This document shows positions 28,543 to 52,598 of a stretch of 57,275 nt of DNA, piece after piece. Both the position numbers and the translations under genes were made by a program. Each line of letters opens with the position of its first letter. Within the stretch, counting starts at the first letter, position 1. This DNA comes from a virus (taxonomy: Duplodnaviria; Caudoviricetes): positions 1 to 57,275 of IMG/VR virus record IMGVR_UViG_3300020463_002067; one strand, written 5' to 3'. The notes below the pieces were generated by a model. That model worked only from the letters and a program-made list of their open reading frames with translations, was not told the DNA's origin and did not search any database.

Positions 28543-28577
28543 TAAATAGTTATACTATAAAGTAGGAGTATAACTAT
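28543..28577 (+). promoter_or_regulatory. late-promoter core TAAATA overlapping an 11-bp hairpin that sequesters the RBS/start codon
   Basis: TAAATA 28543-28548; arms ATAGTTATACT (28546-28556) and AGTATAACTAT (28567-28577) are exact reverse complements; GGAG at 28565-28568, ATG at 28576. Confidence 0.65.
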
Positions 28578-28923
28578 GGACGAAGCACTCAAGAAAGCGT
28601 TAGATTTTTCTAATTTCACCTCTACTCTTAATGCTCAGAAGGCGATCCTTAAAAATAAATGTAAAGATGACTCTGCATTGTACTTCGGCGGAGGAAAGTT
28701 TACAGTTACTATGACACTTTTTTCTTTTGTGTCTAGTTTAGTCCTTCACAAAATTGAATCAACAATACTAGTTGATGACAACAATACACCTATTCAAGTA
28801 GACAACGTTATAGAATTTTTTGATCTTGTAAAAAACAAATACGGAACAGCAACAAACATTTATCTTAACGACTATAAAAAGTTAGCATCTAAACGAAGTA
28901 TAGAAGGTTTAGTAGATGAGTAA
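28576..28923 (+). CDS. hypothetical protein
   Basis: 115 aa, AGGAG RBS, overlaps the next gene; no family recognised. Confidence 0.7.
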   Translation: MDEALKKALDFSNFTSTLNAQKAILKNKCKDDSALYFGGGKFTVTMTLFSFVSSLVLHKIESTILVDDNNTPIQVDNVIEFFDLVKNKYGTATNIYLNDYKKLASKRSIEGLVDE

Positions 28924-29737
28924 TGGAGTTCTTTGTTTTGCAAATAACAATGGTAAGATAAACTATATTCTGCAAGCACAAGAATTAGCTAAACGTGTAC
29001 GCAAATATTTAGACTTACCTACATCAATTGTTACTTCTACACCTTGCCAAGTAGATGAATCATGTTTTGATAAAGTAATTCATTCTGAACACCCTATGGG
29101 AAATTTTAAAAGGTACTATGATGGTGCAAGTACCCATGTTAATATTCCTTTTAATAATGCAGGACGAATAAGCAGTTATGATATTTCACCTTATGATCAG
29201 ACACTAGTATTAGATACTGATGTTATAATATGTAACAGCGATCTAAAAAATGCTTTTGATAGTATACATGACTTTCAAATTTATAAAGATTGTATAGATT
29301 TAACAACTTGGAGAACACATAAAGAATTTAATTACATTAATGACAAAGGTATTCCTTTTTATTGGGCAACAGTTTTTTGTTTTAGGAAAACAAAGCAAAC
29401 AAAAATATTTTTTGAGTTAATGAAACATATAAAGCAAGAATGGACACATTATAGTAATGTATTTGAATTAGGATCGAGAAATTTTCGTAATGATCATATT
29501 TTTAGTATTGCTATTCATATAATGAATGGATTTTTAGATAGTGATTGGGCAAAGACTTTACCAGGGTCTCTTTACTATACATTAGATAGAGATATATTAC
29601 ACAAGATTAATAAATCTAAACTTGTATTTTTGTTAGAAAAAGAAAATTTACACGATGAGTATATTTTGTCTGCAACTAATAATATGAATGTACATGTAAT
29701 GAATAAGTTTAGTTTAGAGAGATTGTTAAATGTCTAA
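28916..29737 (+). CDS. GT-A fold glycosyltransferase-like protein (GT8-like)
   Basis: SPYDQTLVLDTD (DxD); GVLCFA N-terminal strand; RND..FSIA; paralog of the next gene. Confidence 0.7.
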   Translation: MSNGVLCFANNNGKINYILQAQELAKRVRKYLDLPTSIVTSTPCQVDESCFDKVIHSEHPMGNFKRYYDGASTHVNIPFNNAGRISSYDISPYDQTLVLDTDVIICNSDLKNAFDSIHDFQIYKDCIDLTTWRTHKEFNYINDKGIPFYWATVFCFRKTKQTKIFFELMKHIKQEWTHYSNVFELGSRNFRNDHIFSIAIHIMNGFLDSDWAKTLPGSLYYTLDRDILHKINKSKLVFLLEKENLHDEYILSATNNMNVHVMNKFSLERLLNV

Positions 29738-30530
29738 AGGTTATCTATTAGTAGCAATGGGCGATGATTATATTAAGCAAGCATGCTTATGTGCCCTTAG
29801 TATTAAAAAGACACAAACATTATCTAATGTTTCTATTATGACAAGTGATGTTGTTCCTGATAATTATAAACATTTGTTTGATCAAATAATTGAAATACCT
29901 TGGTGGAGTCCTGATAGAAGTTTTTACGGACCAGAGCATCGCTGGAAAGTTTTCCATATTACTCCTTATGAAGAAACTATTGTGTTAGATACAGATACAA
30001 TATTTTTAAATAATGTAGATTATATTTGGAATAGTTTACAAGGTTATAGTGTTGGCTTTTTAACTGATGTAAAAACATATAGAGGAACTACAGTAATAGA
30101 TAATTTTTATAGGCAAGTATTTGTTAAAAACAACCTGCCAAATATTTACAATGCTTTTCATTATTTTAAAAAAGATGATATTGCATTAGATTACTATAAA
30201 CATTTAGAATTAGTTTGTAAGAATAGCAAAGAATTTTATAATATACATTTGAAAAAATTAAAACCTAAAGTTACAAGTATGGATGTTAATCATGCCATTG
30301 CTATTTTAAATAGTAATTTACAAACATACGAAATAAATTCTTTGAACTTCGTACATATGAAGTCAAAAGTTCAAGGGTGGGAAGAATCAAACGTATCCTG
30401 GGTGCATGATATTCCTTTTTATTTTGATAACGAACACAATCTTAAAATAGGTAACTTCCAACAATCAGGCGTATTCCATTATGTTGACCACAAGTTTTGT
30501 AATGAAGTTATAGGAAAATACCATGCATAG
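29730..30530 (+). CDS. GT-A fold glycosyltransferase-like protein (GT8-like)
   Basis: YIKQACLCALSIK, FDQIIEI, TPYEETIVLDTD (DxD), FVHMK, FHY. Confidence 0.75.
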   Translation: MSKGYLLVAMGDDYIKQACLCALSIKKTQTLSNVSIMTSDVVPDNYKHLFDQIIEIPWWSPDRSFYGPEHRWKVFHITPYEETIVLDTDTIFLNNVDYIWNSLQGYSVGFLTDVKTYRGTTVIDNFYRQVFVKNNLPNIYNAFHYFKKDDIALDYYKHLELVCKNSKEFYNIHLKKLKPKVTSMDVNHAIAILNSNLQTYEINSLNFVHMKSKVQGWEESNVSWVHDIPFYFDNEHNLKIGNFQQSGVFHYVDHKFCNEVIGKYHA

Positions 30531-31050
30531 TATAAAAGTTGAAACAAAACAGTATGTGTGCTTTGATTCTAAAACAGGAGAAATTTTTTCTATAGGGCCA
30601 AGCCAAGAATCGGAATACGAACATATAGAAGTTACTGAAGAAGAAATAGAGCCTATACAAACATACAAAGAAAGAATGGAAGATTACAAAGTTATTTTCA
30701 ATTCTGTTTCTAAAAAGTTTGAATTAAGAAAGCTGGCAAATTTAGAAATAGAAAGTAATTTTGCACTACAACAAATCCAAGAAAAAACTAAAGATCCCTA
30801 CTATGACATAGTATTTACGGTTGATAAACAAAAAGATTTATGTTATATAAGTACAATCGATAGTCTTTCTAACGTAAAGTTTGATACGAACATTATGTTT
30901 AGTATCACTAAAAAAGATGATCCGCACTTTCTAATCAAATCCGTAGATTACAAAGTTGGAGAAGAAATAGAATTTAGTATGAAGGCAGATAGCTCATACA
31001 GTATATACACAAATAGTAATTCACTAAGATGTGTATACGAGGAGATATAA
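30523..31050 (+). CDS. hypothetical protein
   Basis: 175 aa, AGGA RBS, overlaps both neighbours; N-terminal FDSKTGEIFSI. Confidence 0.7.
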   Translation: MHSIKVETKQYVCFDSKTGEIFSIGPSQESEYEHIEVTEEEIEPIQTYKERMEDYKVIFNSVSKKFELRKLANLEIESNFALQQIQEKTKDPYYDIVFTVDKQKDLCYISTIDSLSNVKFDTNIMFSITKKDDPHFLIKSVDYKVGEEIEFSMKADSSYSIYTNSNSLRCVYEEI

Positions 31051-31958
31051 TGAAGTTAAAAATTGCAGAACTTGATATAATTTATTTAAGTTATGACGAA
31101 CCAAATGCTGATAAAAATTATGCAGATCTATTAACAAAAGTACCTTGGGCAAAACGTGTACACGGAATAAAAGGTTCGGATGCCGCACACAAGGCGTGTG
31201 CTGAATTAAGTGAAACTGATAGATTTATTACAGTAGATGGTGACAATACTATACGTCAAGATTTTATTAACCAAGTATTAGACTTTGACGAATCCAAAGA
31301 TCTTAAAAATTGTGTTATTAGTTGGTGCGGAAAAAATACTATTAATGGACTAGTATACGGTAACGGCGGACTTAAATGTTGGCCGAAAGAATATGTTTTA
31401 CGTATGAAAACGCATGAAAACGCAGAAGATAATAATGTCCATGCAAAGATTGATTTTTGTTGGGACGCACAGTATATACAACAGAATAGTTGTTATTCAG
31501 ATGTACATAATAATGAAACTCCGCAACAAGCCTGGCGAGCAGGCTTTAGAGAAGGTGTAAAACTAGCTACTGACCGAGGAGCTAAAATTGCTAAAGAAGA
31601 ATTTATCAAAGGACATGCGAAAAATTTAAACATGTTGTATATCTGGATGATGGTTGGTTCAGATATTACAAACGGAAATTGGGCAATATTAGGTGCTAGA
31701 GAAGGACTGGCCATGACTATGTTAACTGATTGGGATTATGTAAACGTAAGAGATTTTGAACATTTAAATGAAATGTGGGCTGGTAGAGATGAAATGCCTG
31801 CCGATGTATTGCACGATGAAATTTTTAATTATGGAAGCGACTTAGTTAACCAATTAGAGATACCTATTGCAGTACAGCCTCTTAACGAAGAACAAAGTGA
31901 GTTTTTTAAAACAGTAAACAATAACTATGGTAGGAATAATGCGTCCTCAAACAGTTGA
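31050..31958 (+). CDS. GT-A-like (nucleotide-diphospho-sugar transferase) protein
   Basis: DIIYLSYDEPNA, AHKACA, FITVDGD (DxD), YGNGGLK, WRAGFREGVKL. Start moved from 31029 to 31050 because of the GAGGAG RBS and TAATG coupling. Confidence 0.65.
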   Translation: MKLKIAELDIIYLSYDEPNADKNYADLLTKVPWAKRVHGIKGSDAAHKACAELSETDRFITVDGDNTIRQDFINQVLDFDESKDLKNCVISWCGKNTINGLVYGNGGLKCWPKEYVLRMKTHENAEDNNVHAKIDFCWDAQYIQQNSCYSDVHNNETPQQAWRAGFREGVKLATDRGAKIAKEEFIKGHAKNLNMLYIWMMVGSDITNGNWAILGAREGLAMTMLTDWDYVNVRDFEHLNEMWAGRDEMPADVLHDEIFNYGSDLVNQLEIPIAVQPLNEEQSEFFKTVNNNYGRNNASSNS

Positions 31959-33297
31959 AGTTAAGAAAAAACTAGATGCTGTTGGTTGTGGCTTTTGTCT
32001 TGCTAAGTGGACTCAAGTTACAATACACTTAGGGTCGGGACTTACACAAAGTTGTCATCATGTAAAAGCACATCCTATAGATATAAATGATCTTGCAACA
32101 AATCCAAGTGTATTGCATAATACAGGATTCAAAAAAAATATAAGAAAAGAGATGCTTGAAAATAAACGTCCAAACGAGTGTAGTTACTGTTGGCGTATTG
32201 AAGATAATACTGGTATGACTAGTGATAGAGTTTTTAAAAGTTCTGATTCGTTCAGTTGGCCGCACTATGATACTATTAAAAATCTTACAGGATCAGAAGA
32301 CTTTTATCCTACATATGTTGAAGTAAGTTTTAGTAATGTATGTAATTTTAAATGCGGATATTGTGGTCCTCAGTTTAGTAGTAAATGGGGAGATGAGATT
32401 AATAAGCATGGTGCATATCAGTTTAAATCAACAAATTGGTCATATAATAAAATTGATGAATATCAAAAACAGATTCCGGAAAGAGAAACCAATCCTTATA
32501 TAGAAGCATTTTGGAAATGGTTTCCGGACGCAGTACAACACATGCATACGTTTAGGATTACAGGTGGCGAACCATTAATGTCTAAACATACAAACAAAGT
32601 TATTGATCACTTGTTAAATAATCCACAACCTAACTTAGAATTTTCGATAAATTCAAATGCTTGTCCTCCAGGAGACCTATGGAAACAGTTTGTAGATAAG
32701 GTTAAAGTCTTAGAAGATAATAAGTGTATTAAGAAATTTGTGTTATTTGTTAGTGCAGAAGGTGTTGGAGCTCAACAAGAATATAACAGATTTGGTATGG
32801 ATTGGAATATGTTTACAAGTAATGTAGAATATTACTTAGATAATACAAAAGGTGTTTGTAGTTTTATGAGTGCGTTTAATGTTTTAAGTATTCCTAGCTT
32901 TTATAATTTTTTACAATATGTAGCAGGTTTAAAACAAAAATATTTTACAAAAGAATATCAAAGGACTTTGGTAGATATACCTTATGTAAAAAGTCCTGCA
33001 TTCTTAGATGCTAAAATAGCAACACATGATTTAGTTAAACATTATTTGTATCCTTGTGTTTCTTTTATGAAAGAAAACGAGTTCGATGACAGAGAAATAG
33101 AAAAAATGGAAAGAATTATTGCTGATTTAGATGTAAGGAAAGACAAACCAGAACAGTTTGGAATAGAAGGCACTGAAGGTCGGCGTATGTTTTATGAATG
33201 GGTACAAGAATACGACAAAAGACGAGGCACTGACTTTGTAAAGACTTTTCCACAAATGAATAAATTTTTAGAGGACTGTAAAGCATGTATGATATAG
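31939..33297 (+). CDS. radical SAM protein with N-terminal Twitch/SPASM-like Cys cluster
   Basis: CNFKCGYC and ITGGEP; N-terminal CLAKW...SCHH...CSYC. ATG 31939 follows AGGA (track start is 31927). Confidence 0.9.
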   Translation: MRPQTVEVKKKLDAVGCGFCLAKWTQVTIHLGSGLTQSCHHVKAHPIDINDLATNPSVLHNTGFKKNIRKEMLENKRPNECSYCWRIEDNTGMTSDRVFKSSDSFSWPHYDTIKNLTGSEDFYPTYVEVSFSNVCNFKCGYCGPQFSSKWGDEINKHGAYQFKSTNWSYNKIDEYQKQIPERETNPYIEAFWKWFPDAVQHMHTFRITGGEPLMSKHTNKVIDHLLNNPQPNLEFSINSNACPPGDLWKQFVDKVKVLEDNKCIKKFVLFVSAEGVGAQQEYNRFGMDWNMFTSNVEYYLDNTKGVCSFMSAFNVLSIPSFYNFLQYVAGLKQKYFTKEYQRTLVDIPYVKSPAFLDAKIATHDLVKHYLYPCVSFMKENEFDDREIEKMERIIADLDVRKDKPEQFGIEGTEGRRMFYEWVQEYDKRRGTDFVKTFPQMNKFLEDCKACMI

Positions 33298-33968
33298 TCT
33301 TTATAAGCTACAACGAACCAAATGCCCGTCAAAATTTTGACGATTTGTACAGTAGATTTAATACTATTGGTGTATTTGGTGATAGAGTAAAGCATGTTTC
33401 TAATGTAAAAGGCATACATAATGCACACATTGAAGCGGCTAAACTAGTAAACACAGATTACTTTTTTGTAGTAGATGGAGATGCACAAATTTTAGACAGT
33501 TTTGTTTTTGATTATACTGTTTCTAATCTTGTTGATGATGTTGTGCATGTTTATCATAGTAAGAATCCTATTAACGATTTAACATATGGTTATGGTGGTG
33601 TAAAATTATTACCAACTAAACTTACACAGAACATGGATATAACAACTACTGACATGACTACAAGTATTAGTAATAAATTTAAAGTAATAAATGAAGTAAG
33701 TAACATTACGGCATTTGATACAGACGAATTTAGCACATGGAAAAGTGCATTTAGAGAATGTGCAAAATTAAGCAGTAAAGTAATTGATAGACAAGATGAA
33801 GGAGAAACAAATGAAAGACTCAAAATATGGACTACTAAGGCTAATGGAAGATTTTGTGAGTATGCGATTCGAGGTGCTAGGGCTGGTATGGAGTTTGGCC
33901 TTTCTAGCGGGACTGACCTTCGGCTAATAAATGACTTTGATTGGTTAAAGGAAAAATTCAATGCTTAA
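33285..33968 (+). CDS. GT-A-like protein, paralog of 31050..31958
   Basis: DIVFISYNEPNA, GIHNAHIEAA, FFVVDGD, YGYGGVK, WKSAFRECAKL; GAGGA RBS. Confidence 0.65.
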   Translation: MYDIVFISYNEPNARQNFDDLYSRFNTIGVFGDRVKHVSNVKGIHNAHIEAAKLVNTDYFFVVDGDAQILDSFVFDYTVSNLVDDVVHVYHSKNPINDLTYGYGGVKLLPTKLTQNMDITTTDMTTSISNKFKVINEVSNITAFDTDEFSTWKSAFRECAKLSSKVIDRQDEGETNERLKIWTTKANGRFCEYAIRGARAGMEFGLSSGTDLRLINDFDWLKEKFNA

Positions 33969-34812
33969 TATTGTTGTTACAAGTAAACCTGTAGATGGAC
34001 TTTTTTATTATAGTTATGAATACTGTTCTCTTTTAAATAGTCTAGGAATAAAAGCAAGAGTAATTGTAATTACACATAGGAACTTTACTCAACAAGATTA
34101 CCTAGATGTTTTAAAGTACAAATACATACATCAACATAATGTTTTGTTTAACTCATTAGACGGTTGGACAGGTGATGCTACATTAGTTATGGGCAGAAGT
34201 ATGATAACATTAAGCTATCAAGATTTTGATAGTTATACAATGCAACAGCAAATGATCTTACGTACTTTGTTTGCAGGTAACGTAATTAGTGTATACTCAG
34301 AAAATCATCCTGCGAAATATCCACTAGCAGTTGAATTTTACCAACCTGAGAAAATTGTGGACTTATGTGATACAGAAGTATATCCTAATGGTGTAGGAAT
34401 ACATTTTGAGAAAACAATTAATTTTGACATATACAAAAAACACAAAGACAATATACAATTCAAGCATTTATTTTTAGGCACTAATGACAAGTATTATGCA
34501 ACAATAGAAAAAGTAATTGATCAATATCCAGATCATGGTATTTTAACATATGATGCTGATTACATAAATCCTAAAAATAATAACATATTTGTTCCTGTAA
34601 AAAATCTAATGAGTTTGTTTGAAACGTATGTATATACAAAAGATACATTCGATCCAGCACCAAGGATTTTTCAAGAGTGTAAATACTTTGATAAAGAAGT
34701 AATTTATGCAAGGGACAAAAATATGAATGATGGTGGAAATGTTTATTGGGATAGACAACCAAGCACACCAGATATAAAGCCTATTGAACAAGCACTAGGA
34801 GAGTTTAAATGA
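33961..34812 (+). CDS. hypothetical protein (possible divergent glycosyltransferase)
   Basis: 283 aa, coupled ORF; C-terminal YVYT..FDPAPRIFQEC is loosely reminiscent of a GT-B nucleotide-binding segment. Confidence 0.5.
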   Translation: MLNIVVTSKPVDGLFYYSYEYCSLLNSLGIKARVIVITHRNFTQQDYLDVLKYKYIHQHNVLFNSLDGWTGDATLVMGRSMITLSYQDFDSYTMQQQMILRTLFAGNVISVYSENHPAKYPLAVEFYQPEKIVDLCDTEVYPNGVGIHFEKTINFDIYKKHKDNIQFKHLFLGTNDKYYATIEKVIDQYPDHGILTYDADYINPKNNNIFVPVKNLMSLFETYVYTKDTFDPAPRIFQECKYFDKEVIYARDKNMNDGGNVYWDRQPSTPDIKPIEQALGEFK

Positions 34813-35882
34813 TATCATACGATGGATGGGATAGAGAATACCAAGAAAATAGATCAGCATACCTTGACATATTTGAAAGTTTTATGAAACAAACTAATTA
34901 TGAAAATAATGAAAAGTTTGAAGAAAATTTTGCAATGCGTGTTGGAAGAGAATATTGTGTAAGTGTAGCAAGTGCAACAGATGCCCTACATTTTATTTTA
35001 TTAGCTCATAATATTAATGCAGATGATGAAGTATTAGTTACTGACTTTAGTTGGATAAGCAGTTCAGCAGTAGTTAGTATGGTAGGTGCTACTCCTGTAT
35101 TTTGCGATATCGATTTAGATAGTTATCATATGAGCTTAGAAAGTATCAAGCGTATGTATTCTAATAAAGTAAAAGCAATTATATATCCGCATTTGTTTGG
35201 CAACATGACCGACACAACAGAGATACAGCAGTTTTGTAAAGATAGAGGTATATTGTTTATTGAAGATGCCGCACAGAGTTTAGGTAGTAGTTTAAATGGA
35301 ATAAAAGCAGGCACTATAGGAGACTGTAGTGTGTACAGTTTTAACAGCAACAAAGTTATTGCAGGTATAAACGGCGGCGGCGTTGTGCTTACTGATGACG
35401 ACAAAGTTGCTAAACGTATTAAAATGATTAGACGTCATGGTAAAGATAAAGATTTTAGTATGGTTGGATACAACAGTAGAATGTATGTACTAAATGCAGA
35501 AATTATTAATCAACGTCTTAAATTTGCAGAACGTAATCAGTTTCATAGGCAAAAAATTGCTAGAAGGTATAACGAAGCATTTGCTGGTTTGCCTATTGCA
35601 GTACAACAAATGTCTAATGGTTTGAATCATAACTATCACAAATATGTTGTACGCTTTTTAGATAAGGATACAAGGAAGCGTGTAAAGAATGCTTTAAATG
35701 CTAGTATACATTACGAAACACCTTTGAGTGCAAATAGTATGTATGAATCATTAAACAGCAGACGTGACGCTTGTACGCAGTCTAAGACGGCATCAGACAC
35801 TGTTTTGTCTTTACCTATACATGCATATCTTAAAGAAGAAGAAATTGAAGAAATTATAAAAATAGTTAAAGAAAGTTTTTAA
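34809..35882 (+). CDS. DegT/DnrJ/EryC1/StrS family PLP-dependent sugar aminotransferase
   Basis: SATDALH, GATPVFCDID, IEDAAQSLG, YSFNSNKVI (PLP lysine), GGVVLTDD, GYNSRM, LSLPIH. Confidence 0.93.
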   Translation: MISYDGWDREYQENRSAYLDIFESFMKQTNYENNEKFEENFAMRVGREYCVSVASATDALHFILLAHNINADDEVLVTDFSWISSSAVVSMVGATPVFCDIDLDSYHMSLESIKRMYSNKVKAIIYPHLFGNMTDTTEIQQFCKDRGILFIEDAAQSLGSSLNGIKAGTIGDCSVYSFNSNKVIAGINGGGVVLTDDDKVAKRIKMIRRHGKDKDFSMVGYNSRMYVLNAEIINQRLKFAERNQFHRQKIARRYNEAFAGLPIAVQQMSNGLNHNYHKYVVRFLDKDTRKRVKNALNASIHYETPLSANSMYESLNSRRDACTQSKTASDTVLSLPIHAYLKEEEIEEIIKIVKESF

Positions 35883-36529
35883 TGGCCTGGCTGACTAATA
35901 GAAAACATGTAGATGCCTATGACAATAGTGTTGACATTGAAAAAGATGTTATTAAGTCATTTAAAGAGGCTTGGAGAGTAACTCCCTCTAAACAAAACTT
36001 TATGCCCTATAAAATACATGTAATAGGTCCAGATGCTCAAGAATGGAAAAATAAACTATACGCTCACTGTCTTAGAAACGAAGGAACTGTTGATAATTTG
36101 TCAGATGAACAATTGGTTAGTAGATATGAGCATCGTCCTCCTAGTTACCATAGTATTACTAATTGCTCTTTTGCTTTAATTATTACACAACGGTTAGTTA
36201 CAAAACCTAATGTGCGACAACAGAAAAGATTAGAAAAAGGTCATGTAGCAGAACAAATGGATGTCAAACAACAGCATGCACTTAACTCTATAGTAAGTTT
36301 TGAAGTTGGGTTATTTTGTAACGCTTTACAGTATTATCTTTTACAAAAAAATATTGATTCCTGTTATACAGGATGTTTTCAAAATGATTTAAACACATGG
36401 AGAACATTACCTTTTGTTAATGAAACTCCTATAATGATAATGACTATCGGTAAAGGTATAAGATTTGCTGAGAGAGATCCTGAGAATGACCGACCAGACC
36501 TCGATGAAATCGTCAATATCGTAAAGTAA
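35882..36529 (+). CDS. nitroreductase-superfamily flavoprotein
   Basis: RKHVDAYD...AWRVTPSKQNFMPY (cf. R.S.R.F and APS..N.QPW), IDSCYTGCF, IMTIGK. Confidence 0.7.
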   Translation: MAWLTNRKHVDAYDNSVDIEKDVIKSFKEAWRVTPSKQNFMPYKIHVIGPDAQEWKNKLYAHCLRNEGTVDNLSDEQLVSRYEHRPPSYHSITNCSFALIITQRLVTKPNVRQQKRLEKGHVAEQMDVKQQHALNSIVSFEVGLFCNALQYYLLQKNIDSCYTGCFQNDLNTWRTLPFVNETPIMIMTIGKGIRFAERDPENDRPDLDEIVNIVK

Positions 36530-36532: not shown

Positions 36533-36537
36533 CTAGT

Positions 36538-44974: not shown

Positions 44975-45177
44975 TGGATTGGAATCACTTAAAAAAGATT
45001 AAAACAGGATACTTTAAGCACTTTTTTTATGCTATGTACTTTAACATACTAGCTCTATTAGTGTTTATAACTGGTACAATACATGCCATATTTCCTCCTT
45101 TATTTGCATTTACGCCATACAAATTAGCCAAGAAGATTACAGATGGAACTGAAAAACATTTTAAAAAACGGAACTAG
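44974..45177 (+). CDS. small membrane protein, DUF6356-like
   Basis: HL....GYFKHF..A, hydrophobic helix, IHAIFPPLF; TAATG coupling. Confidence 0.6.
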   Translation: MDWNHLKKIKTGYFKHFFYAMYFNILALLVFITGTIHAIFPPLFAFTPYKLAKKITDGTEKHFKKRN

Positions 45178-45826
45178 TATAAGTTCTAGTGGCACAACAG
45201 GACCTGCAAAACAAATATATCAAAGCCCTGATAAAATTAAACATGCAAATCAATCGGCACGTGACGTACAAAAGATTACAAGTACAAGCAAAATTTATAC
45301 TGTTTGCAAATTAGATCATGCAGGCGGATTGCTTGCACAAACATTGCCAGCTATAGAAATAGATGCTGAGGTACATATAGAACAGTTCAATCCCTTTAAG
45401 TGGGTTAGAAGTATAAAATATTTTACTCACAGTCATTTAACACCCGGAATGTGTCTTGCTATATCAAAGACTAAAGGATGGAACAATTTAGATTTAGAAG
45501 GTAAGATTATTGCTTGTGGTAGCGATAGAGTACCTGCAGAATGTATTAATAGATTTGTAGCCAAAGGTGCTACTTTTATTGCTAATTGGGGAATGAGTGA
45601 AATAGGTCCAATGGCAATAAACAAAACATATACGCCACAAGATGCAGAAGCATATGATTTGCCAGGATATACTATAATGGGTGATACAGCGTTCTGTGAT
45701 ATACAAATATCTGAACGGAATGAATTAATTGTTAAAGGTGATATTTGTGTATACGATGATTGGTTTGCTACAGGCGATATTGTAAAATTTGACAAAGGAA
45801 GTTATTGGTACTATGGTAGAAAGTAA
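45143..45826 (+). CDS. minimal adenylate-forming (AMP-binding) enzyme
   Basis: SSSGTTGPAK (A3), WGMSE (A5), ELIVKG (A6), WFATGD (A7), ends YYGRK (A8); only 227 aa. Confidence 0.8.
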   Translation: MELKNILKNGTSISSSGTTGPAKQIYQSPDKIKHANQSARDVQKITSTSKIYTVCKLDHAGGLLAQTLPAIEIDAEVHIEQFNPFKWVRSIKYFTHSHLTPGMCLAISKTKGWNNLDLEGKIIACGSDRVPAECINRFVAKGATFIANWGMSEIGPMAINKTYTPQDAEAYDLPGYTIMGDTAFCDIQISERNELIVKGDICVYDDWFATGDIVKFDKGSYWYYGRK

Positions 45827-46541
45827 TTGTATAACATTAAATTTTCCACAAGGAAGTGGAGGTCACATGCTAGGACGTATGATAGCATGTTGCGAAAATG
45901 TTGCCTGGTACGATCATGAACAAAATAATGATCATCCTTGGTTACCTTATATGGGCAAAGATAAAGATTTTAGTAAAATGCACTTCAACAAAAGATTTAA
46001 AGGAGCAAAGCCTAAAGGACTAGATCCCGAATTTACTATACCTCCAGTATTAAGTTTTGCACGATCAAGAGGAATAACAACTACTCCTGCAGATATACAA
46101 GCATGGAAGAAAAAATTATATCCCAATCACTTTATATACACACTGCATGATGACTTAGATGAAACTAAAAAGTTTTTTGATCCTGCACAGTATATTGTTG
46201 TAATACCAGATGATATCGAATTATTAATTGAAAGATGGATGCGATCAAGTTATTATTATTTTGTTGATCCTAAAAACAAAGAATATTTGTACAAAGATTT
46301 ATATGAAGATAGAGCTAAAGAACAAGGTATTACTATGAAGCAAGTACTTGCTAATGAGTTTGAAATACAAATTGAAAATTATAAAACACACTCAACTGAA
46401 GATGATGTTGTTATTACAGAAATAAATGATATCTTAAAGTATGATGTATATGAAGAAGTATGCAATAAATTGCAACTTATAATTAATAAAGAAAACTATG
46501 ATAAATGTAAAGTACTGTTTGAAAACAGATCACATCTTTAA
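45813..46541 (+). CDS. hypothetical protein, possible sulfotransferase-like P-loop fold
   Basis: N-terminal LNFPQGSGGHMLGRMI resembles the PAPS-binding loop region. ATG 45813 preferred to the TTG at 45789. Confidence 0.45.
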   Translation: MVESNCITLNFPQGSGGHMLGRMIACCENVAWYDHEQNNDHPWLPYMGKDKDFSKMHFNKRFKGAKPKGLDPEFTIPPVLSFARSRGITTTPADIQAWKKKLYPNHFIYTLHDDLDETKKFFDPAQYIVVIPDDIELLIERWMRSSYYYFVDPKNKEYLYKDLYEDRAKEQGITMKQVLANEFEIQIENYKTHSTEDDVVITEINDILKYDVYEEVCNKLQLIINKENYDKCKVLFENRSHL

Positions 46542-47267
46542 TATTTCAAAATAGAAACGTTTTCTATCTTTTTTGTATTGCTCTAACTTACAGTTATATT
46601 CTTTTGCAAGTGCATATGCAAATTCGAAACTCCACGGAAATATATCTACGTAAGGTCCTTTAGGCCAAAGTATCCCTGGATTGACTCTAAAATACATTCT
46701 TCCACCTACGTCTAGTAAAGAATGTAACTTTGTAAAACGAGTACGAATATCAGCTTCGTCACCAAAGTTCAAACTACCAAACACAATCATATGGTCATAC
46801 TTTTCATCTACATTAAAGTCTAATATATCTACCATATAATCTGCATTTTCGTTGAAAGGATCTATTCCTGTAAGATTCTTAATACGTGGTTTAAATTGAT
46901 TATAACCACAACCAAAGTCTAAAACATTCTTTGGATCACGCTCATTTATTCTATCAACAATACTCCAACCACTGTAGGTATGTTCATCTGTATTAGGCTT
47001 CCATATTTCTCCAAAGAACCTTTTCATATAAAATGTATCTAATGATTGTACAAATTGTTCTACTGTACCAGTCAAATCTAATTGTTCAATATCTAATTCA
47101 TGCATTAAACTTTGACAGAACTTTTCTTTACGTGCAGGTGTAAATGGCATATCGTCAATAATACTATGCTTATCTAATTGCAAGTCACCGTATTTAGGCA
47201 AGCTAAACGCTTGTTCTAAATTTTGCATAACTAACGAAAAAATTCGTGTATTCATAATTTTTTTCAC
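46530..47267 (-). CDS. class I SAM-dependent methyltransferase with an N-terminal helical (ACP-like?) domain
   Basis: VLDFGCG, TGIDP, YDHMIVFGSLNF, LDVGGRMY; about 80 aa N-terminal extension. Confidence 0.8.
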   Translation of the reverse strand: MKKIMNTRIFSLVMQNLEQAFSLPKYGDLQLDKHSIIDDMPFTPARKEKFCQSLMHELDIEQLDLTGTVEQFVQSLDTFYMKRFFGEIWKPNTDEHTYSGWSIVDRINERDPKNVLDFGCGYNQFKPRIKNLTGIDPFNENADYMVDILDFNVDEKYDHMIVFGSLNFGDEADIRTRFTKLHSLLDVGGRMYFRVNPGILWPKGPYVDIFPWSFEFAYALAKEYNCKLEQYKKDRKRFYFEILKM

Positions 47268-47343: not shown

Positions 47344-48777
47344 ATGGCTTCAGTATTGGCATTACTTGCAGGAACATTATATGGACTAATAATTGGCATC
47401 CTGCCTGGAGCAGGTGCAACTACAGGTTTAATATTTGTATTTTCATTTATTACATTGTTTCCAGACCCTTACCTAGCAGTAATATTTGTTATGGCAGTTG
47501 TAGCCGCAAGTACAACAGGTGATACTTACACAGGTGTGCTATTAGGCATACCAGGTGCAAACTCTGCCGCGGCAACAATGATAGATGGATTTCCATTAGC
47601 ATTACAAGGTAAAGCAACTTATGCAATCAGTTCAGCAGTTACAACAAGCACACTTAACGGTTTGTTATGGGGATCGTTAACTTTCTTTTTGCTACCATAT
47701 TACACACAACTAATAATGATTTTTGGTGTTCCTGAACTATGGGCATTCACAATGTTAGCATTAGTTTGTGTTACATTTGTTACAAACAAATTTTGGTTTA
47801 GAAGTTTGTTAGCACTATGTATAGGATTGTTTGTAGGATTAATTGGAGTTGATCCTAGCACCAATGCAGATAGATGGACAGGTGGCTGGGAGTATCTGGG
47901 AGACGGCGTACAACTTATGCCTTTGGTTGCTGGACTATTTGCAATACCAGAACTACTTGATGGCCTAAAGCAAAGAACAAACACAAGCATGGTAGCACTT
48001 GCAAATGGCAAACAAACCAAAGAAGGTATATTAGCTGTTTGGCATAATAAGTGGGACGCTATGCGAGGCGGATTCATTGGAGCCTTTATAGGATTACTAC
48101 CAGGACTAGGAGGTGCAGTTGCAGACTGGATGGCTTATAGTTCTACAGTTGCAAGCCACCCTAAAGATAAATTTGGTAATGGTAATATCAAAGGAGTAAT
48201 AGGACCTGAAGGAGCCAACAATGCACAAAAGGCAACCTCTATGATTCCTACAGTATTATTTGGAATACCAGGAGCAAGTTTTGCGGCCATTGTAATTGGA
48301 CTATTTGCATATTTGGACTTTGAATTAGGTACCTTAGAGCTTGCAAATGATGCCAAATTCTTCGATAGTATGTTATACGGGTTTATGCTCGCAACCGTGC
48401 TTGTAGGCGCTATATGCTTGTTTACGACACCAATTATAGCACGAATAGCACAAATACCTTACAAATATTACTTCCCATTATTGTTAGGATTTATAGTACT
48501 TGCATGTGTTCAATACACTGGAGGTTGGGAAGATTATTTCATGCTTTTGGTATGTAGTATAGTAGGACTACTTGCCAAGCGATACAAATTTAGCAGACCT
48601 GCCCTGCTATTTGCATTTATTCTATCTGATAGAATAGAAGCACTTACAGTACAAATGACAGGACTTTATACAGTTGAAAAACTGTTAGACAAACCAATAT
48701 TCCTCGGTTTATGTGTTGCAATAGGTGTAACACTAATATGGGGATTAACATCAAAAAGGAAAATAAACTATGCGTAA
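47344..48777 (+). CDS. tctA: tripartite tricarboxylate transporter large permease TctA
   Basis: Highly hydrophobic; GILPGAG, LLGIPGANSAAATMIDGFPLALQGKA, GLFAIPE, IGLLPGLG, GPEGANNA, PTVLFGIPG. Confidence 0.93.
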   Translation: MASVLALLAGTLYGLIIGILPGAGATTGLIFVFSFITLFPDPYLAVIFVMAVVAASTTGDTYTGVLLGIPGANSAAATMIDGFPLALQGKATYAISSAVTTSTLNGLLWGSLTFFLLPYYTQLIMIFGVPELWAFTMLALVCVTFVTNKFWFRSLLALCIGLFVGLIGVDPSTNADRWTGGWEYLGDGVQLMPLVAGLFAIPELLDGLKQRTNTSMVALANGKQTKEGILAVWHNKWDAMRGGFIGAFIGLLPGLGGAVADWMAYSSTVASHPKDKFGNGNIKGVIGPEGANNAQKATSMIPTVLFGIPGASFAAIVIGLFAYLDFELGTLELANDAKFFDSMLYGFMLATVLVGAICLFTTPIIARIAQIPYKYYFPLLLGFIVLACVQYTGGWEDYFMLLVCSIVGLLAKRYKFSRPALLFAFILSDRIEALTVQMTGLYTVEKLLDKPIFLGLCVAIGVTLIWGLTSKRKINYA

Positions 48778-49816
48778 ATTATTATTAGGACTAGTATTTG
48801 CAATGTTTACTTCGGTAGCATATGCAGATTATACAATGGTTGTACCGCAAAAGCCGGGTGGTGGTACAAGTGTTTGGGCAGAGATTGTTGCTAAAGAACT
48901 TGAAAAGTATCTTGGTGAAAATATCAATATCAAACATATTCCCGGAGCGAGAGATATTCCAGGATTTAACAAATGGCACAACGAAATGCGTGATGACGAT
49001 AAAGTAATTATGGTATCACATGGTGGTAACGGTGTTGCTTTTTTACAAGAAGAAGTTGACTATGATTACCGTCAGTACGAAAGTATCGGACTTATGAATC
49101 TTAACATTATTGCAGGTAAACGTGTCGGTGAAGATATGACAACTCCTAGCTTTGCGGCGGGTAGTGGTCAAACACCAGAAGCGTATGCAATGGCAATGTT
49201 AATTTGTGGTCCAAGCCATTATGGTGTTGCATATTACGCAACATGTTTTAAGAAAAAAGTAAAATGGATTAAAGGTATGGGCGGAAGTGAAAGACGTCTT
49301 GCTTTTAAACGAGGTGAGCTAACCGGTACAAGAGAAAATCCTGCGGCATACAAAAAGCATGTTGAGCCAGACTCAAATGCAGAAATTTGGTTCCATCATG
49401 GTATCCTACAAGCAGACGGATCACATAAAGACGATCCTAACTATCCAGGCTTTCAGTTTGAAGAACTATACAAGCAAAAGTGGGGAGCATATCCTGTAGG
49501 TGAAATGTATGATGCTTACAAACTTGTAAAAAGTTTTAGAGACGGAATGCAAAAAGCATTGTGGGTAAACCAAGGCAATCCTAATGCAAAAAAATTACAA
49601 GATGCATTAACGGAAATGTCTAACAATGCAGAAAGTCGTGCTATTATCGAAAAGAAAGTTGGAAAGTATGAATGGCTAATTGGCGAAGAAGGCAATGCCC
49701 ATAGAGATACATTAATGACTTTTGTTACACCTGAAGCGTTGGAGGATTTAGTTTGGTTTAATATAGAAGCACTTGGTTTAAAAAGTGTATTCAAGATTGA
49801 GCTGGCACTAAAATGA
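48770..49816 (+). CDS. tctC: tripartite tricarboxylate transporter substrate-binding protein TctC/Bug-like
   Basis: Signal peptide (MRKLLLGLVFAMFTSVAYA), MVVPQKPGGGTSVWAEIVAKELEKYLG...IPGA, GGSERRLAFKRGEL; adjacent to tctA. Confidence 0.82.
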   Translation: MRKLLLGLVFAMFTSVAYADYTMVVPQKPGGGTSVWAEIVAKELEKYLGENINIKHIPGARDIPGFNKWHNEMRDDDKVIMVSHGGNGVAFLQEEVDYDYRQYESIGLMNLNIIAGKRVGEDMTTPSFAAGSGQTPEAYAMAMLICGPSHYGVAYYATCFKKKVKWIKGMGGSERRLAFKRGELTGTRENPAAYKKHVEPDSNAEIWFHHGILQADGSHKDDPNYPGFQFEELYKQKWGAYPVGEMYDAYKLVKSFRDGMQKALWVNQGNPNAKKLQDALTEMSNNAESRAIIEKKVGKYEWLIGEEGNAHRDTLMTFVTPEALEDLVWFNIEALGLKSVFKIELALK

Positions 49817-50499
49817 AAATAGTAATATCGCATGGTAGCGGGGGGATCAGCTCTGCTGAAACCTTCGCTCGAGATTTCTTTGAAAGTAAAGGTTACGAAG
49901 TACATCTAATCGATTACTTTACTCCACACGGAATCACAAACCTATGGTGGAGTGATGGTCAGTGGCAAGATGAACATGATTGCACATTTAGTGAAATGTT
50001 CAATGTTAACTTTCCTCAAGGTGATCTTATACATATAGGATTTAGTTTAGGTGCATTCTTAGGTATTGTTCATCACAAAAAGTTTTTGAAAAATTATCTA
50101 TTTTATCCTGGCTGTATTGCTATTTCAGAATCTATGCTTGATGTAGATTACAGCAATGCAGTGGTAATATCTGGTACAGAAGATAATGGACAAAATAAGT
50201 ATAAAATTTTTAGAGACATGTTAAAACATCCACCTTTGAAACATTATGAATTACCTGGAGTACATCATGCATTTATGGTAAGCGATATTGATAGATCATT
50301 TCATATGGTTAGATATGGTAACAAAGGAGAAGTGATGAATCAACAAGAGTTTGATCAACTCAAACCTAATCATAAATATTTAAGTGAACGTTATGGTTAC
50401 ACGATAGAACCTACAACATTGAGATCGCATAATAAATATAGATTACAATATCTAAATATGATTGAAGAGGAAATACGTGAGTATCGTACTAAAGTTTGA
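49813..50499 (+). CDS. alpha/beta hydrolase, dienelactone-hydrolase-like
   Basis: HGSGG, IGFSLGA (GxSxG), FYPG, SGTED, GVHHAF give a plausible Ser-Asp-His triad. Confidence 0.8.
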   Translation: MKIVISHGSGGISSAETFARDFFESKGYEVHLIDYFTPHGITNLWWSDGQWQDEHDCTFSEMFNVNFPQGDLIHIGFSLGAFLGIVHHKKFLKNYLFYPGCIAISESMLDVDYSNAVVISGTEDNGQNKYKIFRDMLKHPPLKHYELPGVHHAFMVSDIDRSFHMVRYGNKGEVMNQQEFDQLKPNHKYLSERYGYTIEPTTLRSHNKYRLQYLNMIEEEIREYRTKV

Positions 50500-51643
50500 A
50501 GACGGAAAGTCGTATACAAAAGAAGAGTTTGATAAAATTTCAAACGTATACGCAGAAGAATTAAAAAACGCAGGATACGACAGAACTTGTCGTATCGGCA
50601 TTTACAGCGACTGGAATAATATTTTTAAAATATTTGGTGCTATGCAAGTATGCAGTCCTGTAATAGTAGATAAAGATTCTAAAACTTTTGAATTAGATTT
50701 TTACGATATAGATATATGGAGCGATAGTATACCAGCACCAAGATTTAATCAGTGCAAAGAAGATGAAGTAGCAGGTATATGTTCTAGTGGTAGTACTGAT
50801 AAACCTCGTATTGTTCCGATTACAAGACAACAATACGATATTGATGGTTTAGATAATAATATTCAACTACATGCAAATCTTACAGATAAAGATAGTACTG
50901 TAAACTTTATTCCTTATTGGGTATGTATAGGATTTCAAACGTTCTGTGCCTGTTATAAATATGGAGCAACATATCATGTACTAAAAGATCCTTGGAAGTA
51001 TTGGCCTAAAGTACGGCCTACATTTGTTATAGGTAGTCCTAATGTGTTAAGGGGAATGATGGATCCTAGTGTTCCTTACGATAATATGACACTAAGACAC
51101 ATTAGAACTGTAGGTGCTCCAATGTATAAGGATCTAAAAATAAAAGCTCAACAGTTTTTTAATTGCTTAACAACAGATAGTTATGGTGTAAATGAATTAG
51201 GTACAATTAGCATTATGCATTATCCACAAAAATATAATAGTGTTGGTTATTTGTTAGAAGGTATGAATGTTACTTTTGGAGATGACAAAGAAATAATTGT
51301 AAACGGATTTGCTACAGGTGATTTAGGGCATATAGATGAAGATGGATTTTTATTCATTACAGGAAGAAAAAAAGAAATTATAATTAAAGGCGGCTGGAAA
51401 ATTATGCCGTATGAAGTTGAAAAAGCATTGTTAGAGTGCGGTGCTCAAGATGCTATTGTATTTGGTTACGATAATGTATATGCTGAAGTAGTAGGCAAAG
51501 TTGATATAGAAATGTTAAAACAAAAGCTAGTACGGTATAAGATACCTAAAATATTTACTGTTGATACTATTAAAAGAAAAGGTCAAGGTAAAATAAATAG
51601 AAAAGATTTGTATAATGCCTATATCGAAAATAGAAAAATCTGA
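50477..51643 (+). CDS. acyl-CoA synthetase-like adenylate-forming enzyme
   Basis: CSSGSTDKPR, YGVNE, FATGDLGHIDEDGFLFITGRKKEIIIKGG, PYEVE, YKIPK, GKINRK. GTG 50477 follows GAGG. Confidence 0.88.
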   Translation: MSIVLKFEDGKSYTKEEFDKISNVYAEELKNAGYDRTCRIGIYSDWNNIFKIFGAMQVCSPVIVDKDSKTFELDFYDIDIWSDSIPAPRFNQCKEDEVAGICSSGSTDKPRIVPITRQQYDIDGLDNNIQLHANLTDKDSTVNFIPYWVCIGFQTFCACYKYGATYHVLKDPWKYWPKVRPTFVIGSPNVLRGMMDPSVPYDNMTLRHIRTVGAPMYKDLKIKAQQFFNCLTTDSYGVNELGTISIMHYPQKYNSVGYLLEGMNVTFGDDKEIIVNGFATGDLGHIDEDGFLFITGRKKEIIIKGGWKIMPYEVEKALLECGAQDAIVFGYDNVYAEVVGKVDIEMLKQKLVRYKIPKIFTVDTIKRKGQGKINRKDLYNAYIENRKI

Positions 51644-52598
51644 TTGGTACGAAGATTATATCGTACATTGGCGCCCTACTGACATGTGTAATTATGATTG
51701 TAGTTACTGTGAACCTAGTAACCATCTAGCAATTAATAAAGCAAAGTTACCAGATGTAAATGATTTAATTAAAGCATCGAAAAAAATTAGAGATGCTGTT
51801 CCTGCTGACAAATCTGTATTAGTTTATATAACAGGCGGAGAACCGTTTTTAATAAAAGATGTACATAAATGGTTTAACTATATGGGCGAAAACGGAATGC
51901 GTGTTGGTATATTTACAAACGGCAGTTTACCGTTACGTGTATACGATTACAGTAAAGAGTCTTTCCAGAACATTAATATTAAAATAAGTTTCCATCCTGA
52001 AAGTGCTGATATAGATAAAATAGTTAACTTTGTTAACATGATTAAAGACAATAACGGTAATGTTGAAGTAAGGGCAATGTTAGCACAGAGGTTGTTTGAT
52101 AAGATATTTGAACTTGAAAAGAAACTAAAAGATACACCTATATATAAAATTCCTGTTAATCCGTTGTACAATAAAAAAACAAAAGTTACTAATCAAACAT
52201 TTGAGTCCAGTAGAGATTTAAAAGGTTATCATCAGAGATTAGATAATGGTGATTTAAATTATTATACTAAAGAAGAACTAGAATTTATAGAAACACTTGA
52301 TCAAGAAAAACCCGCATACCTAAACTTTACAGTAGACGATACAATACAAACTAATGCTATTGATTTTTTACAAAAAAGAACTAATAAGTTCTTTGGTTGG
52401 AAATGTGGTATTACAAATAAGAAAATTCTAATTCAAGCAAACGGAGACGTTCAGTACGGAACATGTGCAAATACAGGTATTGTGGGAAATATATTTGAAA
52501 AAGATTTAAAACTTTTTAATGAAGAATGGACTATCTGTGGTAAAGAAGTTTGTACTACACTTGATGAAATAATGATTACTAAGTTTAAATTAAGTTAA
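51615..52598 (+). CDS. radical SAM protein with C-terminal SPASM/Twitch-like domain
   Basis: CNYDCSYC, ITGGEP, FTNG, ISFHP; C-terminal C...GDV..TC...GNI...C....C. Confidence 0.9.
   Translation: MPISKIEKSDWYEDYIVHWRPTDMCNYDCSYCEPSNHLAINKAKLPDVNDLIKASKKIRDAVPADKSVLVYITGGEPFLIKDVHKWFNYMGENGMRVGIFTNGSLPLRVYDYSKESFQNINIKISFHPESADIDKIVNFVNMIKDNNGNVEVRAMLAQRLFDKIFELEKKLKDTPIYKIPVNPLYNKKTKVTNQTFESSRDLKGYHQRLDNGDLNYYTKEELEFIETLDQEKPAYLNFTVDDTIQTNAIDFLQKRTNKFFGWKCGITNKKILIQANGDVQYGTCANTGIVGNIFEKDLKLFNEEWTICGKEVCTTLDEIMITKFKLS

Follow-up and report, generated by a model that had tools for sequence, protein, structure and literature searches.

A conserved, probably sugar-tailoring enzyme core within the hypervariable host recognition cluster of a marine T4-like phage

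Gene content of the enzyme block

The window analyzed here is the complete IMG/VR virus record IMGVR_UViG_3300020463_002067, a linear stretch of 57,275 bases with a CheckV completeness of 16 which, judged by its sequence, comes from a marine T4-like phage related to those infecting SAR11 (pelagimyophage-like). Its main subject is a block of enzyme genes at 28576-52598, made up of 29 tightly packed open reading frames (ORFs), 25 on the plus and 4 on the minus strand, most with overlapping stops and starts (Table 1). An initial annotation of the DNA had counted about 27 genes, a number slightly too low, and the dense packing it described was confirmed. The block is bounded by fibre genes on both sides, as that annotation had stated, with Collar- and Peptidase_G2-domain proteins to the left and an Mtd_N-domain protein to the right (Pfam).

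Pfam gave matches for 17 of the 29 ORFs (E <= 0.01) and PHROGs for nine, and NCBIfam added the twitch-domain radical SAM subfamily of 31927-33297. The gene content proposed initially is largely real. The DegT aminotransferase (280.8 bits), the carbamoyltransferase (Carbam_trans_C, 231 bits), the halogenase family (Trp_halogenase, 205 bits) and TctA (315 bits) were all recovered, together with three radical SAM proteins (31927-33297, 36538-37377, and 51615-52598), three nitroreductase-like proteins (Pfam, and a family profile, A8, matching PDB nitroreductases at E 3.9e-8), and two adenylating enzymes, both as partial AMP-binding proteins. Other calls stood in part. Pfam is nearly blind to the four GT-A-like glycosyltransferases (GTs), which are supported instead by a GT8 profile match for one pair and a GT-A model for the other. 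One of the two methyltransferases (39565-40284) is a class I enzyme and the other (46530-47267) is weak (E 0.0068). The SGNH pair (E 0.002-0.003) stays below the cut-off, as does the 2-oxoglutarate hydroxylase (21.7 bits versus 22.6), seen here as an AspH-like oxygenase. The TctC candidate (48770-49816) is likewise weak, with a signal-peptide-like N-terminus and TctC/Bug proteins as three of its five PDB hits at E 0.2-1.2, and the supposed hydrolase (49813-50499) has a GFSLG motif and no family match. A fifth GT-fold protein, of the GT-B type (33961-34812), had been overlooked, so that the block encodes two GT8-like, two GT2-like GT-A and one GT-B protein. Hydrophobic segments are confined to TctA and a 67-amino-acid (aa) protein, all enzymes of the block being otherwise soluble.

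Table 1. Features of the enzyme block and its flanks (window coordinates; loci refer to the 56 related loci described in the text)
Feature	Coordinates	Strand	Evidence and occurrence
Four fibre-type genes, left flank	22178..28539	+	Pfam; 693 aa (Phage Tail Collar), 613 aa, 492 aa (Peptidase_G2/IMC autoproteolytic), 304 aa
GTAAATA variant late-type box	28542..28548	+	34 nt before first island gene; spacing as for canonical boxes before 2882, 26132, 53712(-)
115-aa protein, no family	28576..28923	+	Homologues in 3/56 loci
Pair of GT8-like GT-A glycosyltransferases (paralogues), 273 and 266 aa	28916-29737, 29730-30530	+	LDTD motif; in 3 and 7 of 56 loci
175-aa protein, no family	30523..31050	+	In 7/56 loci
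309-aa GT-A-fold protein, paralogue of 33285-33968	31029..31958	+	VDGD motif; alignments; fold via the paralogue's model
456-aa radical SAM protein, N-terminal twitch domain	31927..33297	+	NCBIfam NF033640, 302.8 bits (cut-off 170)
227-aa GT-A-fold (GT2-like) glycosyltransferase	33285..33968	+	AlphaFold2 (AF2) model with a pLDDT (predicted local distance difference test) of 87.8
283-aa GT-B-fold protein (H283), core	33961..34812	+	AF2 pLDDT 90.7; without Pfam family
DegT/DnrJ/EryC1-family sugar aminotransferase, core	34809..35882	+	Pfam 280.8 bits
Nitroreductase-fold protein J, 215 aa, core	35882..36529	+	Pfam 27.9 bits; profile A8
279-aa radical SAM protein, core	36538..37377	+	CxxxCxxC; Pfam 35.1 bits
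NodU/TobZ-type carbamoyltransferase, core	37374..38852	+	Pfam; PHROG 1601, 368 bits
Nitroreductase-fold protein M, 246 aa, core	38834..39574	+	Pfam E 0.0015; profile A8 vs PDB 3.9e-8
Class I SAM methyltransferase, 239 aa, core	39565..40284	+	Profile A7 vs MJ0882 7.8e-7, KsgA/Erm
Two SGNH/GDSL-like proteins, 220 and 232 aa	40262..41619	-	Pfam E 0.002-0.003, below cut-off; N-terminal G-C-S-x-T-x-G block
Nitroreductase-fold protein Q, 319 aa, conserved C-terminal extension, core anchor	41619..42578	-	Pfam 25.0 bits
Canonical ATAAATA late-type box	42604..42610	-	32 nt before Q gene
AspH-like (Asp/Asn beta-hydroxylase family) cupin oxygenase	42677..43297	+	Pfam 21.7 bits (cut-off 22.6)
174-aa protein, no family	43294..43818	+	Pfam null
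Flavin-dependent halogenase family protein, 388 aa	43808..44974	+	Pfam Trp_halogenase 205 bits; PHROG 2928
67-aa DUF6356 membrane protein	44974..45177	+	Pfam; hydrophobic segment
227-aa partial AMP-binding (adenylate-forming) protein	45143..45826	+	Pfam 37.0 bits, profile positions 170-375 only
250-aa protein, no family	45789..46541	+	Pfam null
245-aa possible methyltransferase (weak)	46530..47267	-	Methyltransf_23 E 0.0068, below cut-off
TctA, large membrane subunit of tripartite tricarboxylate transporter	47344..48777	+	Pfam 315 bits; nine hydrophobic segments
348-aa secreted protein, probably TctC/Bug-type binding protein (weak)	48770..49816	+	Signal-peptide-like N-terminus; TctC/BugD/Bug27 among 5 PDB hits, E 0.2-1.2
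228-aa protein, possible alpha/beta hydrolase	49813..50499	+	GFSLG motif; no family
393-aa acyl-CoA-ligase-like adenylating enzyme, truncated	50462..51643	+	Pfam 66.2 bits; ATAAATA 30 nt upstream
327-aa radical SAM enzyme	51615..52598	+	Pfam 43.6 bits; NCBIfam STM4011-type 49 bits, below cut-off; ATAAATA 22 nt upstream
Mtd_N-domain fibre, right flank	52585..53712	-	Pfam; ATAAATA 34 nt upstream

A conserved core among variable cassettes

Related loci were defined by the presence of protein Q, used as the anchor. It is carried by 55 IMG/VR loci which, with that of the Pelagibacter phage Mosig EXVC030M, the closest cultured relative, gave 56 loci against which all 47 window proteins were compared; the 18 that extend 9 kb or more in both directions from the anchor were considered full. 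The 24 kb block consists of a conserved core of about 9 kb and variable cassettes. DegT and the 279-aa radical SAM protein are present in all 18 full loci, the carbamoyltransferase and the methyltransferase in 17 each, and the GT-B protein in 16, missing from two loci that begin with DegT at their edge. The two small nitroreductase-like paralogues occur in 13 full loci each and the AspH-like gene in ten. The GT-A proteins of 227 and 309 aa, like the SGNH pair, are found in seven, and the two GT8-like proteins in one and four, respectively. Everything from the halogenase through the last radical SAM gene, including both adenylating enzymes, TctA, the binding protein and the hydrolase, is restricted to 2/18, this distal half being carried only by three near-identical contigs (L003, L004, L024). 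In the relatives, DegT is followed by the radical SAM, carbamoyltransferase and methyltransferase genes in this same order, and core content and order persist where the identity of the anchor falls to 48-66% at the protein level.

This distribution does not agree with a single pathway over 24 kb, as assumed at first, with core genes in 16-18 of the 18 full loci versus 2/18 for the distal ones. For the same reason, the proposed chain of import, activation, tailoring and transfer is not supported, since it would join the conserved core to a cassette found in near-identical relatives only. The co-occurrence by which the initial annotation suggested checking its pathway is thus seen for the core, which is kept together, and not for the proximal (1-7/18) and distal (2/18) genes, which vary. 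Which genes are swapped in was seen when 118 other ORFs, taken from ten related loci, were scanned with Pfam: GT8 (6), short-chain dehydrogenase/reductase (SDR) epimerases/dehydratases (6), AspH-family proteins (7), FA_desaturase (3), and TauD, as well as radical SAM enzymes of the B12 and SPASM types, methyltransferases and a protein for Fe-S assembly.

Outside viral DNA, the core is hardly ever seen. A motif-based scan of 185,579 species genomes, one per species, gave no hit to the anchor, which is not proof of absence, and the GT-B protein was found in those genomes only on three short contigs of metagenome-assembled genomes from three phyla. All three carry the same phage core and are therefore probably mis-binned virus. 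Their bins are Rhodobiaceae (L058), Pelagibacter (L059) and Planctomycetota (L060). Among 50,697 GenBank phage records, Mosig is the only one with Q or the GT-B protein.

Predicted functions of the core and proximal proteins

Because profile searches of the PDB gave nothing significant for H283 and the 227/309-aa family, their folds were taken from predicted structures. The model of H283 is a compact GT-B fold with two Rossmann-like domains, for a protein with no significant Pfam, NCBIfam or PDB sequence match (best PDB profile E 1.2). Its structure matches (VIA) are PimA (Z 14.6, root mean square deviation 4.3, 242 aligned), BshA (14.2) and the epimerase MnaA (13.7), and it also matches the T4 DNA glucosyltransferases (Z 12.7 for alpha and 11.5 for beta). 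An invariant D231-x7-E239 stands in the alignment and might correspond to the EX7E-type GT motif. The protein falls into at least 1582 metagenomic sequence clusters, none of them named.

The link of this GT-B domain with radical SAM chemistry comes from 26 metagenomic proteins of 715-996 aa (P0121-P0146) that join the two, with PF04055 found on 24. Out of ten fusions checked, eight have a twitch-type radical SAM region like that of 31927-33297 and two have no match beyond the GT-B domain; one of the ten, P0140, shows the reverse order with radical SAM first. Given such fusions, the two activities very probably share one substrate. In Mosig, the H283 orthologue (Mosig_00083, record 61562-62428) is annotated as "putative molybdenum cofactor biosynthesis enzyme", a label probably carried over from fused GT-B/radical SAM relatives.

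The DegT protein matches the sugar 4-aminotransferase equivalogs PseC, LegC, ArnB, and DesI, all far under their cut-offs, the best being PseC with 188 bits (cut-off 423.5). In the 279-aa radical SAM protein, C200, C219, C252, and C255 are invariant in 18 sequences, and these four C-terminal cysteines indicate that its tail, short and twitch-like, houses an auxiliary cluster. The best PDB matches of the protein are viperin-like (4e-4) and, weakly, BtrN (0.04). Protein Q gave no significant hit in a profile search of the PDB (best E 0.3) and falls into viral nitroreductase clusters of the ESM Atlas. The AspH-like oxygenase is 44% identical to Mosig_00081. Several relatives (L007, L023, L025, L036, L044, and Mosig_00084/85) have an extra small radical SAM gene and a separate ORF of 100-120 aa, located between the GT-B and DegT genes (SPASM in L036), a pair that the window lacks. 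A maturase for ribosomally synthesized and post-translationally modified peptides, or for proteins, was also considered as a reading of the radical SAM and nitroreductase-like genes and was rejected: no YcaO or precursor-like gene was found, and the 100-120-aa ORFs of the relatives, being split SPASM domains, were counted against it.

Upstream of the core, the GT8-like pair is recognized by its family profile (A4), which matches PDB glycogenin at E 3.6e-5 over the first 100 positions (the DxD half); Pfam Glyco_transf_8 gave no match even at E <= 10. With the same Pfam limit, the sole match on the four GT-A proteins was Glycos_transf_2 (E 0.092) for 33285-33968. The model of this 227-aa protein retrieved RmlT in Foldseek (3.3e-4), as well as CgT, TarS, ppGalNAc-T, and A64R of chlorovirus PBCV-1. 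In the ESM Atlas it falls into unnamed viral clusters, the nearest named one being Glycos_transf_2 at 0.87, which is a lead only. The profile of the 227/309-aa family found nothing significant in the PDB (best E 0.54), and profile-profile comparison showed no relation between the two GT-A families (probability 0.13).

Late-type promoter boxes

The heptamer ATAAATA, which presumably has the late-promoter meaning it has in T4, occurs ten times in the window versus 39.9 +/- 6.4 expected from shuffles, an approximately four-fold depletion, and eight of these copies stand 22-44 nt ahead of a start on their own strand. These are the starts of 2882, 21567, 26132 (a fibre), the Mtd_N fibre, 55015, the Q gene, 50462, and 51615. 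The depletion, together with the siting before starts, suggests selection against stray late promoters. The full octamer TATAAATA is found only three times in the window. T4-type late units are marked by a TATAAATA-like -10 box upstream of genes, with no -35 element, and by the count, siting and recurrence of ATAAATA the window conforms to this.

Late boxes of the T4 type within the block, as reported in the initial annotation, are thus real and recur in relatives, although its individual positions fared differently. The box at 42604 is canonical and lies on the minus strand before the Q gene. Those at 28543 and 36527 are GTAAATA variants, the latter only 12 nt from the start codon, and 42647 and 47313 do not match the late box at all. 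The boxes before 50462 and 51615 had been missed. Among the relatives, 17/54 anchor genes, 11/18 AspH genes and 9/34 core radical SAM genes have a box within 70 nt, at a background of 0.155 per kb per strand (about 1% expected); these loci are not independent, and several lineages, including Mosig, contribute.

Sigma-70-like matches are fewer in the window than in shuffles. The only near-consensus one, TTGACA-17-TATACT (11/12) at 56692-56664 on the minus strand, is located upstream of a DUF2201 metallopeptidase/VWA gene, where an early or middle unit may adjoin the late genes. Three RNA-library runs from two studies contain contigs of 151-454 nt (depth 2-9) over core and distal genes, in 18, 13, and 13 of 30 bins. 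Since DNA may be present and contigs give no timing, they were not counted as evidence of expression or late timing.

Relation to known systems

In its available text, the study of Zaragoza-Solas et al. 2020 (PMC7029224) describes a hypervariable host recognition cluster of pelagimyophages, on average 44.6 kb, located between VrlC and gp14. It contains fibres, GTs (GT8 being commonest), and radical SAM cassettes, and was proposed to modify the host O-chain (PMC7029224). The block resembles this island of pelagimyophages and cyanomyophages, which is a non-syntenic structural-region island with fibres, GTs, lipopolysaccharide (LPS)-type, radical SAM, and transport genes, and shares with it both structural-module fibres with GTs and a hypervariable content. 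It differs in that VrlC and gp14, the bounds of the published island, were not identified in the window, where there is no gp14 and the large proteins have no DUF4815/VrlC Pfam match; DUF4815 (VrlC-type) giants adjoin the island in four of the ten relatives examined, as VrlC does in Mosig. As far as its available text goes, PMC7029224 treats the enzymes jointly as O-chain genes. The word carbamoyltransferase is absent from that text and the core families from two of its supplements, while other supplements may list clusters. The island type is therefore already published in outline, and what is worked out here is the conserved core, the GT-B fold of H283 and the radical SAM fusions. A full-text literature search found no related paper on a phage set of radical SAM, glycosyltransferase, aminotransferase and carbamoyltransferase genes, and the accessible parts of the papers on "moraphage" and cyanophage S-SCSM2R hold no data on the cassette.

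A second likeness is with viruses that glycosylate their virions (mycobacteriophage, chlorovirus, and mimivirus), which encode soluble GTs near structural genes; the chlorovirus protein A64R is itself a fold match of the 227-aa GT-A protein. Mycobacteriophage capsid and tail-tube glycans have reportedly been described by Freeman et al. in 2023, and in giant viruses a DegT-type aminotransferase serves to make rare aminosugars. To our knowledge, the virion-glycosylation systems described do not include radical SAM, nitroreductase-like or carbamoyltransferase partners, and we know of no glycosylated virion protein in any pelagimyophage or cyanomyophage.

Proposed function and its alternatives

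Taken together, the block is probably the enzyme-rich part of a hypervariable host recognition cluster, a three-part mosaic in which the core tailors a sugar. In the reading we tentatively prefer, without giving it an even chance, an amino-, methyl- and carbamoyl-decorated sugar would be made late in the cytoplasm and transferred onto virion proteins. The core radical SAM enzyme, or the short SDR in many relatives, would oxidize a sugar hydroxyl to a ketone, which DegT would aminate, and the methyltransferase and carbamoyltransferase would then decorate the aminated product. The GT-B protein would bind or transfer the nucleotide sugar, and the nitroreductase-like proteins might supply or use flavin redox, either as electrons to Fe-S enzymes or in a flavin step of their own. 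In a subset of relatives, the four GT-A enzymes and the twitch radical SAM protein upstream (28,916-33,968) could extend the glycan. Its acceptor would be phage-made and cytoplasmic, namely the fibre or baseplate proteins of the virion, the most likely acceptors because all enzymes are soluble and appear to be read from late-type promoters with fibre genes. The late boxes, the co-orientation with fibre genes, the soluble machinery and the almost-only-viral families point to the virion indirectly, and as a target it is a possibility that we hold tentatively.

Several observations weigh against this proposal. UDP-N-acetylglucosamine 2-epimerases (Z 13.7) and T4 DNA glucosyltransferases (12.7) fit H283 nearly as well as GT4 enzymes do, and the BtrN likeness of the 279-aa radical SAM protein, at E 0.04, is limited to the common core. 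With Pfam and NCBIfam, neither a gene for nucleotide-sugar synthesis nor one for a dehydratase was found in the window. The status of ATAAATA as a late promoter would follow from its likeness to T4 and its siting before structural genes, and the related loci are not independent samples, many being near-duplicates. Homologues of the window fibres occur in only 1/56 loci, so there is no fixed enzyme-fibre pairing, and the fibre genes adjoining the core differ between relatives. Position in a hypervariable island says little for a virion target, because such islands also gather host-directed genes, TctA being the example here. AspH/LpxO-type oxygenases are typical of LPS work, as are GT8 enzymes according to the available text of PMC7029224. 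The GT8 and LpxO-like families, TctA within the island and the missing fixed fibre partner point, again indirectly, to the host.

The corresponding alternative, the chief rival, which we hold to be rather unlikely, is that the enzymes alter LPS, capsule or surface glycan of the infected cell, perhaps blocking superinfection or stopping progeny from sticking to debris, and rely on the lipid carriers, flippases, and ligases of the host. It is the published reading of the island (PMC7029224), repeated in PMC12379486 and PMC12801897 as far as their available text goes. The GT8-like proteins of the island agree with it, as do the GT8, short SDR, AspH-family, FA_desaturase, and TauD genes added in relatives, and TctA shows that host-directed genes do lie within the island. 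However, the window has no membrane GT, flippase, polymerase, or ligase, the enzymes being soluble; with Pfam, PHROGs, and NCBIfam, none of the flippase, bactoprenol-linked transferase and polymerase genes of GtrABC-type or Wzy-dependent O-antigen systems were found in the block. Unlike captured host LPS genes, the core families are not seen in cellular genomes apart from the three probably mis-binned contigs, and late-type boxes would leave little time for surface turnover before lysis. That the island merely gathers unrelated auxiliary genes, with adjacency reflecting tolerance of insertions and no common product, is in our view distinctly unlikely. Turnover outside the core is indeed fast (distal genes in 2/18 and proximal ones in 1-7/18 full loci), PMC7029224 terms the island hypervariable, and structural variants have been reported there in later literature, in both cases as far as the accessible text shows; against this stand the core, conserved in content and order to 48-66% anchor identity, the 26 fusions of GT-B and radical SAM, and the overlapping start and stop codons, which indicate co-translation.

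Two further products can be considered, both with little probability. A diffusible compound resembling an aminoglycoside, a nucleoside or a Nod factor, with TctA/C as importer and the adenylating enzymes as activators, seems very unlikely. The combination of twitch radical SAM, DegT, carbamoyltransferase, N-methyltransferase-like and GT-B proteins does recall the deoxyaminosugar and aminoglycoside tailoring sets of actinomycetes (desosamine DesI/II/V/VI/VII, noviose NovM/N/P, BtrN/BtrS, and TobZ), a likeness to which the four-Cys auxiliary pattern and the weak BtrN match of the 279-aa protein conform. In contrast to those sets, the window has no aglycone or cyclitol scaffold gene and no nucleoside diphosphate-sugar 4,6-dehydratase, the named equivalogs score far below their cut-offs, and the setting is viral with late-type boxes. 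A 2-deoxystreptamine pathway is not indicated, as no synthase-type family was found in the 29 proteins and BtrN matches at just E 0.04 over the radical SAM core. Nor did Pfam and NCBIfam reveal a 2-deoxy-scyllo-inosose synthase, nonribosomal peptide or polyketide synthase or chitin synthase among them. Moreover, the transporter, adenylating enzymes and halogenase are missing from 16 of the 18 full relatives that keep the core, and no export function was found in the block.

Hypermodification of phage DNA bases by the GT-B protein and its partners, we consider highly improbable. The GT-B fold is common to the T4 glucosyltransferases, and late expression would be compatible with this use, as Mom of phage Mu modifies DNA late; the argument of the initial annotation that late timing excludes DNA modification is accordingly weak on its own. 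The carbamoyltransferase family is also shared, one phage member being known to modify 5-hydroxymethylcytosine (PMC8670742, available text). In the same text, however, DNA-modifying carbamoyltransferases adjoin thymidylate-synthase-like and deaminase genes, while those of unmodified contigs adjoin glycosyltransferases, as here. The thymidylate-synthase/hydroxymethylase family PF00303 was found in 0/5 core-bearing records, Mosig included and all of them incomplete, and as a control in 10/14 genomes. It is this absence and the gene neighborhood that speak against DNA; five GT-fold proteins placed among fibre genes fit a glycan better, and the boxes are late-type rather than early.

Returning to the virion as target, a bolder version appears unlikely. 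In it, the abundant T4-like phages of the ocean would have in the core a virion-glycosylation system complete in itself, with dedicated nitroreductase-fold flavoproteins and a novel first step by a compact GT-B protein and a twitch radical SAM enzyme, the two being fused in some phages; the amino/methyl/carbamoyl sugar would be built directly on fibre or baseplate, tuning adsorption or shielding the particle. SAR11 phages and their relatives are among the most numerous marine viruses, and such genes are currently filed as "LPS genes" changing the host surface. Should the core indeed decorate the virion, no earlier case would exist among marine T4-like phages, and there would be consequences for host range, adsorption and particle survival; on the published reading, it is one more instance of a known island. 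Since the phage Mosig, cultured on HTCC1062, carries the core, the question of virion versus host is directly testable, and experiment would be worthwhile on the conserved core, whose unrecognised GT-B protein has a link to radical SAM chemistry.

Distal cassette

The distal genes (43,294-52,598) are probably a lineage-specific add-on with a function of its own, and among the results obtained here nothing ties them to the product of the core. The halogenase family protein has 388 aa versus a profile of 458 positions, and its WxWxIP site, which we take to be the relevant motif, looks degenerate by eye. Of 201 Pelagibacterales genomes, 96 have a match to TctA, none above 35% identity; it is therefore not a recent host copy, a result with no bearing on the pathway. 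No TctB was identified among the window proteins, the 67-aa DUF6356 protein not having been checked as one.

Flanking genes and assembly

The left 28 kb are a T4-type baseplate and fibre module with a gp5 C-terminal domain, PAAR and gp25 (Pfam), proteins of 1188 aa and 5032 aa, and Collar-domain and Peptidase_G2-domain fibres. The 5032-aa protein is a single ORF (6448-21546, plus strand) with weak CBM_5_12, FG-GAP, and DUF2460 matches and no DUF4815 (VrlC). On the right, the DUF2201 metallopeptidase/VWA gene (Pfam) is found in addition to the Mtd_N fibre.

A chimeric host fragment, which the initial annotation had named as a possible error, can be set aside, because both junctions recur in independent contigs and the G+C content of the block (0.28-0.39) is the same as that of the flanks. 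The left junction, from the fibres to the first island gene, is seen again in locus L017, where homologues of fibre genes 2-4 of the left flank directly precede the island, and the right junction, from the last radical SAM gene to the Mtd_N fibre, in three other records. At least half of the core's sampled words are present in 14 marine DNA runs, and 20 rows from nine studies hold some part of the core, three of the 20 being possible sources of this DNA. Single DNA contigs of another marine run seem to bridge 33944/51687 and 40463/46408, over 17.7 kb and 5.9 kb. With flanking matches of just 22-24 letters (90% likeness), the joins are probably spurious, deletion variants being the other possibility.

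In a nucleotide search of GenBank phages, the sole match to the island was Mosig, over 4% of its length, with 75% identity across the carbamoyltransferase and methyltransferase genes; the left 25 kb had no match in the same search. At the protein level, 10 of the 47 window proteins match Mosig, which has a comparable enzyme block located between fibre genes and VrlC. The CheckV completeness of 16 at 57 kb, and of 41 at 146 kb for the record behind locus L056, implies a reference genome of about 350 kb, which would make this lineage a possible jumbo relative of the pelagimyophages of about 140-150 kb.

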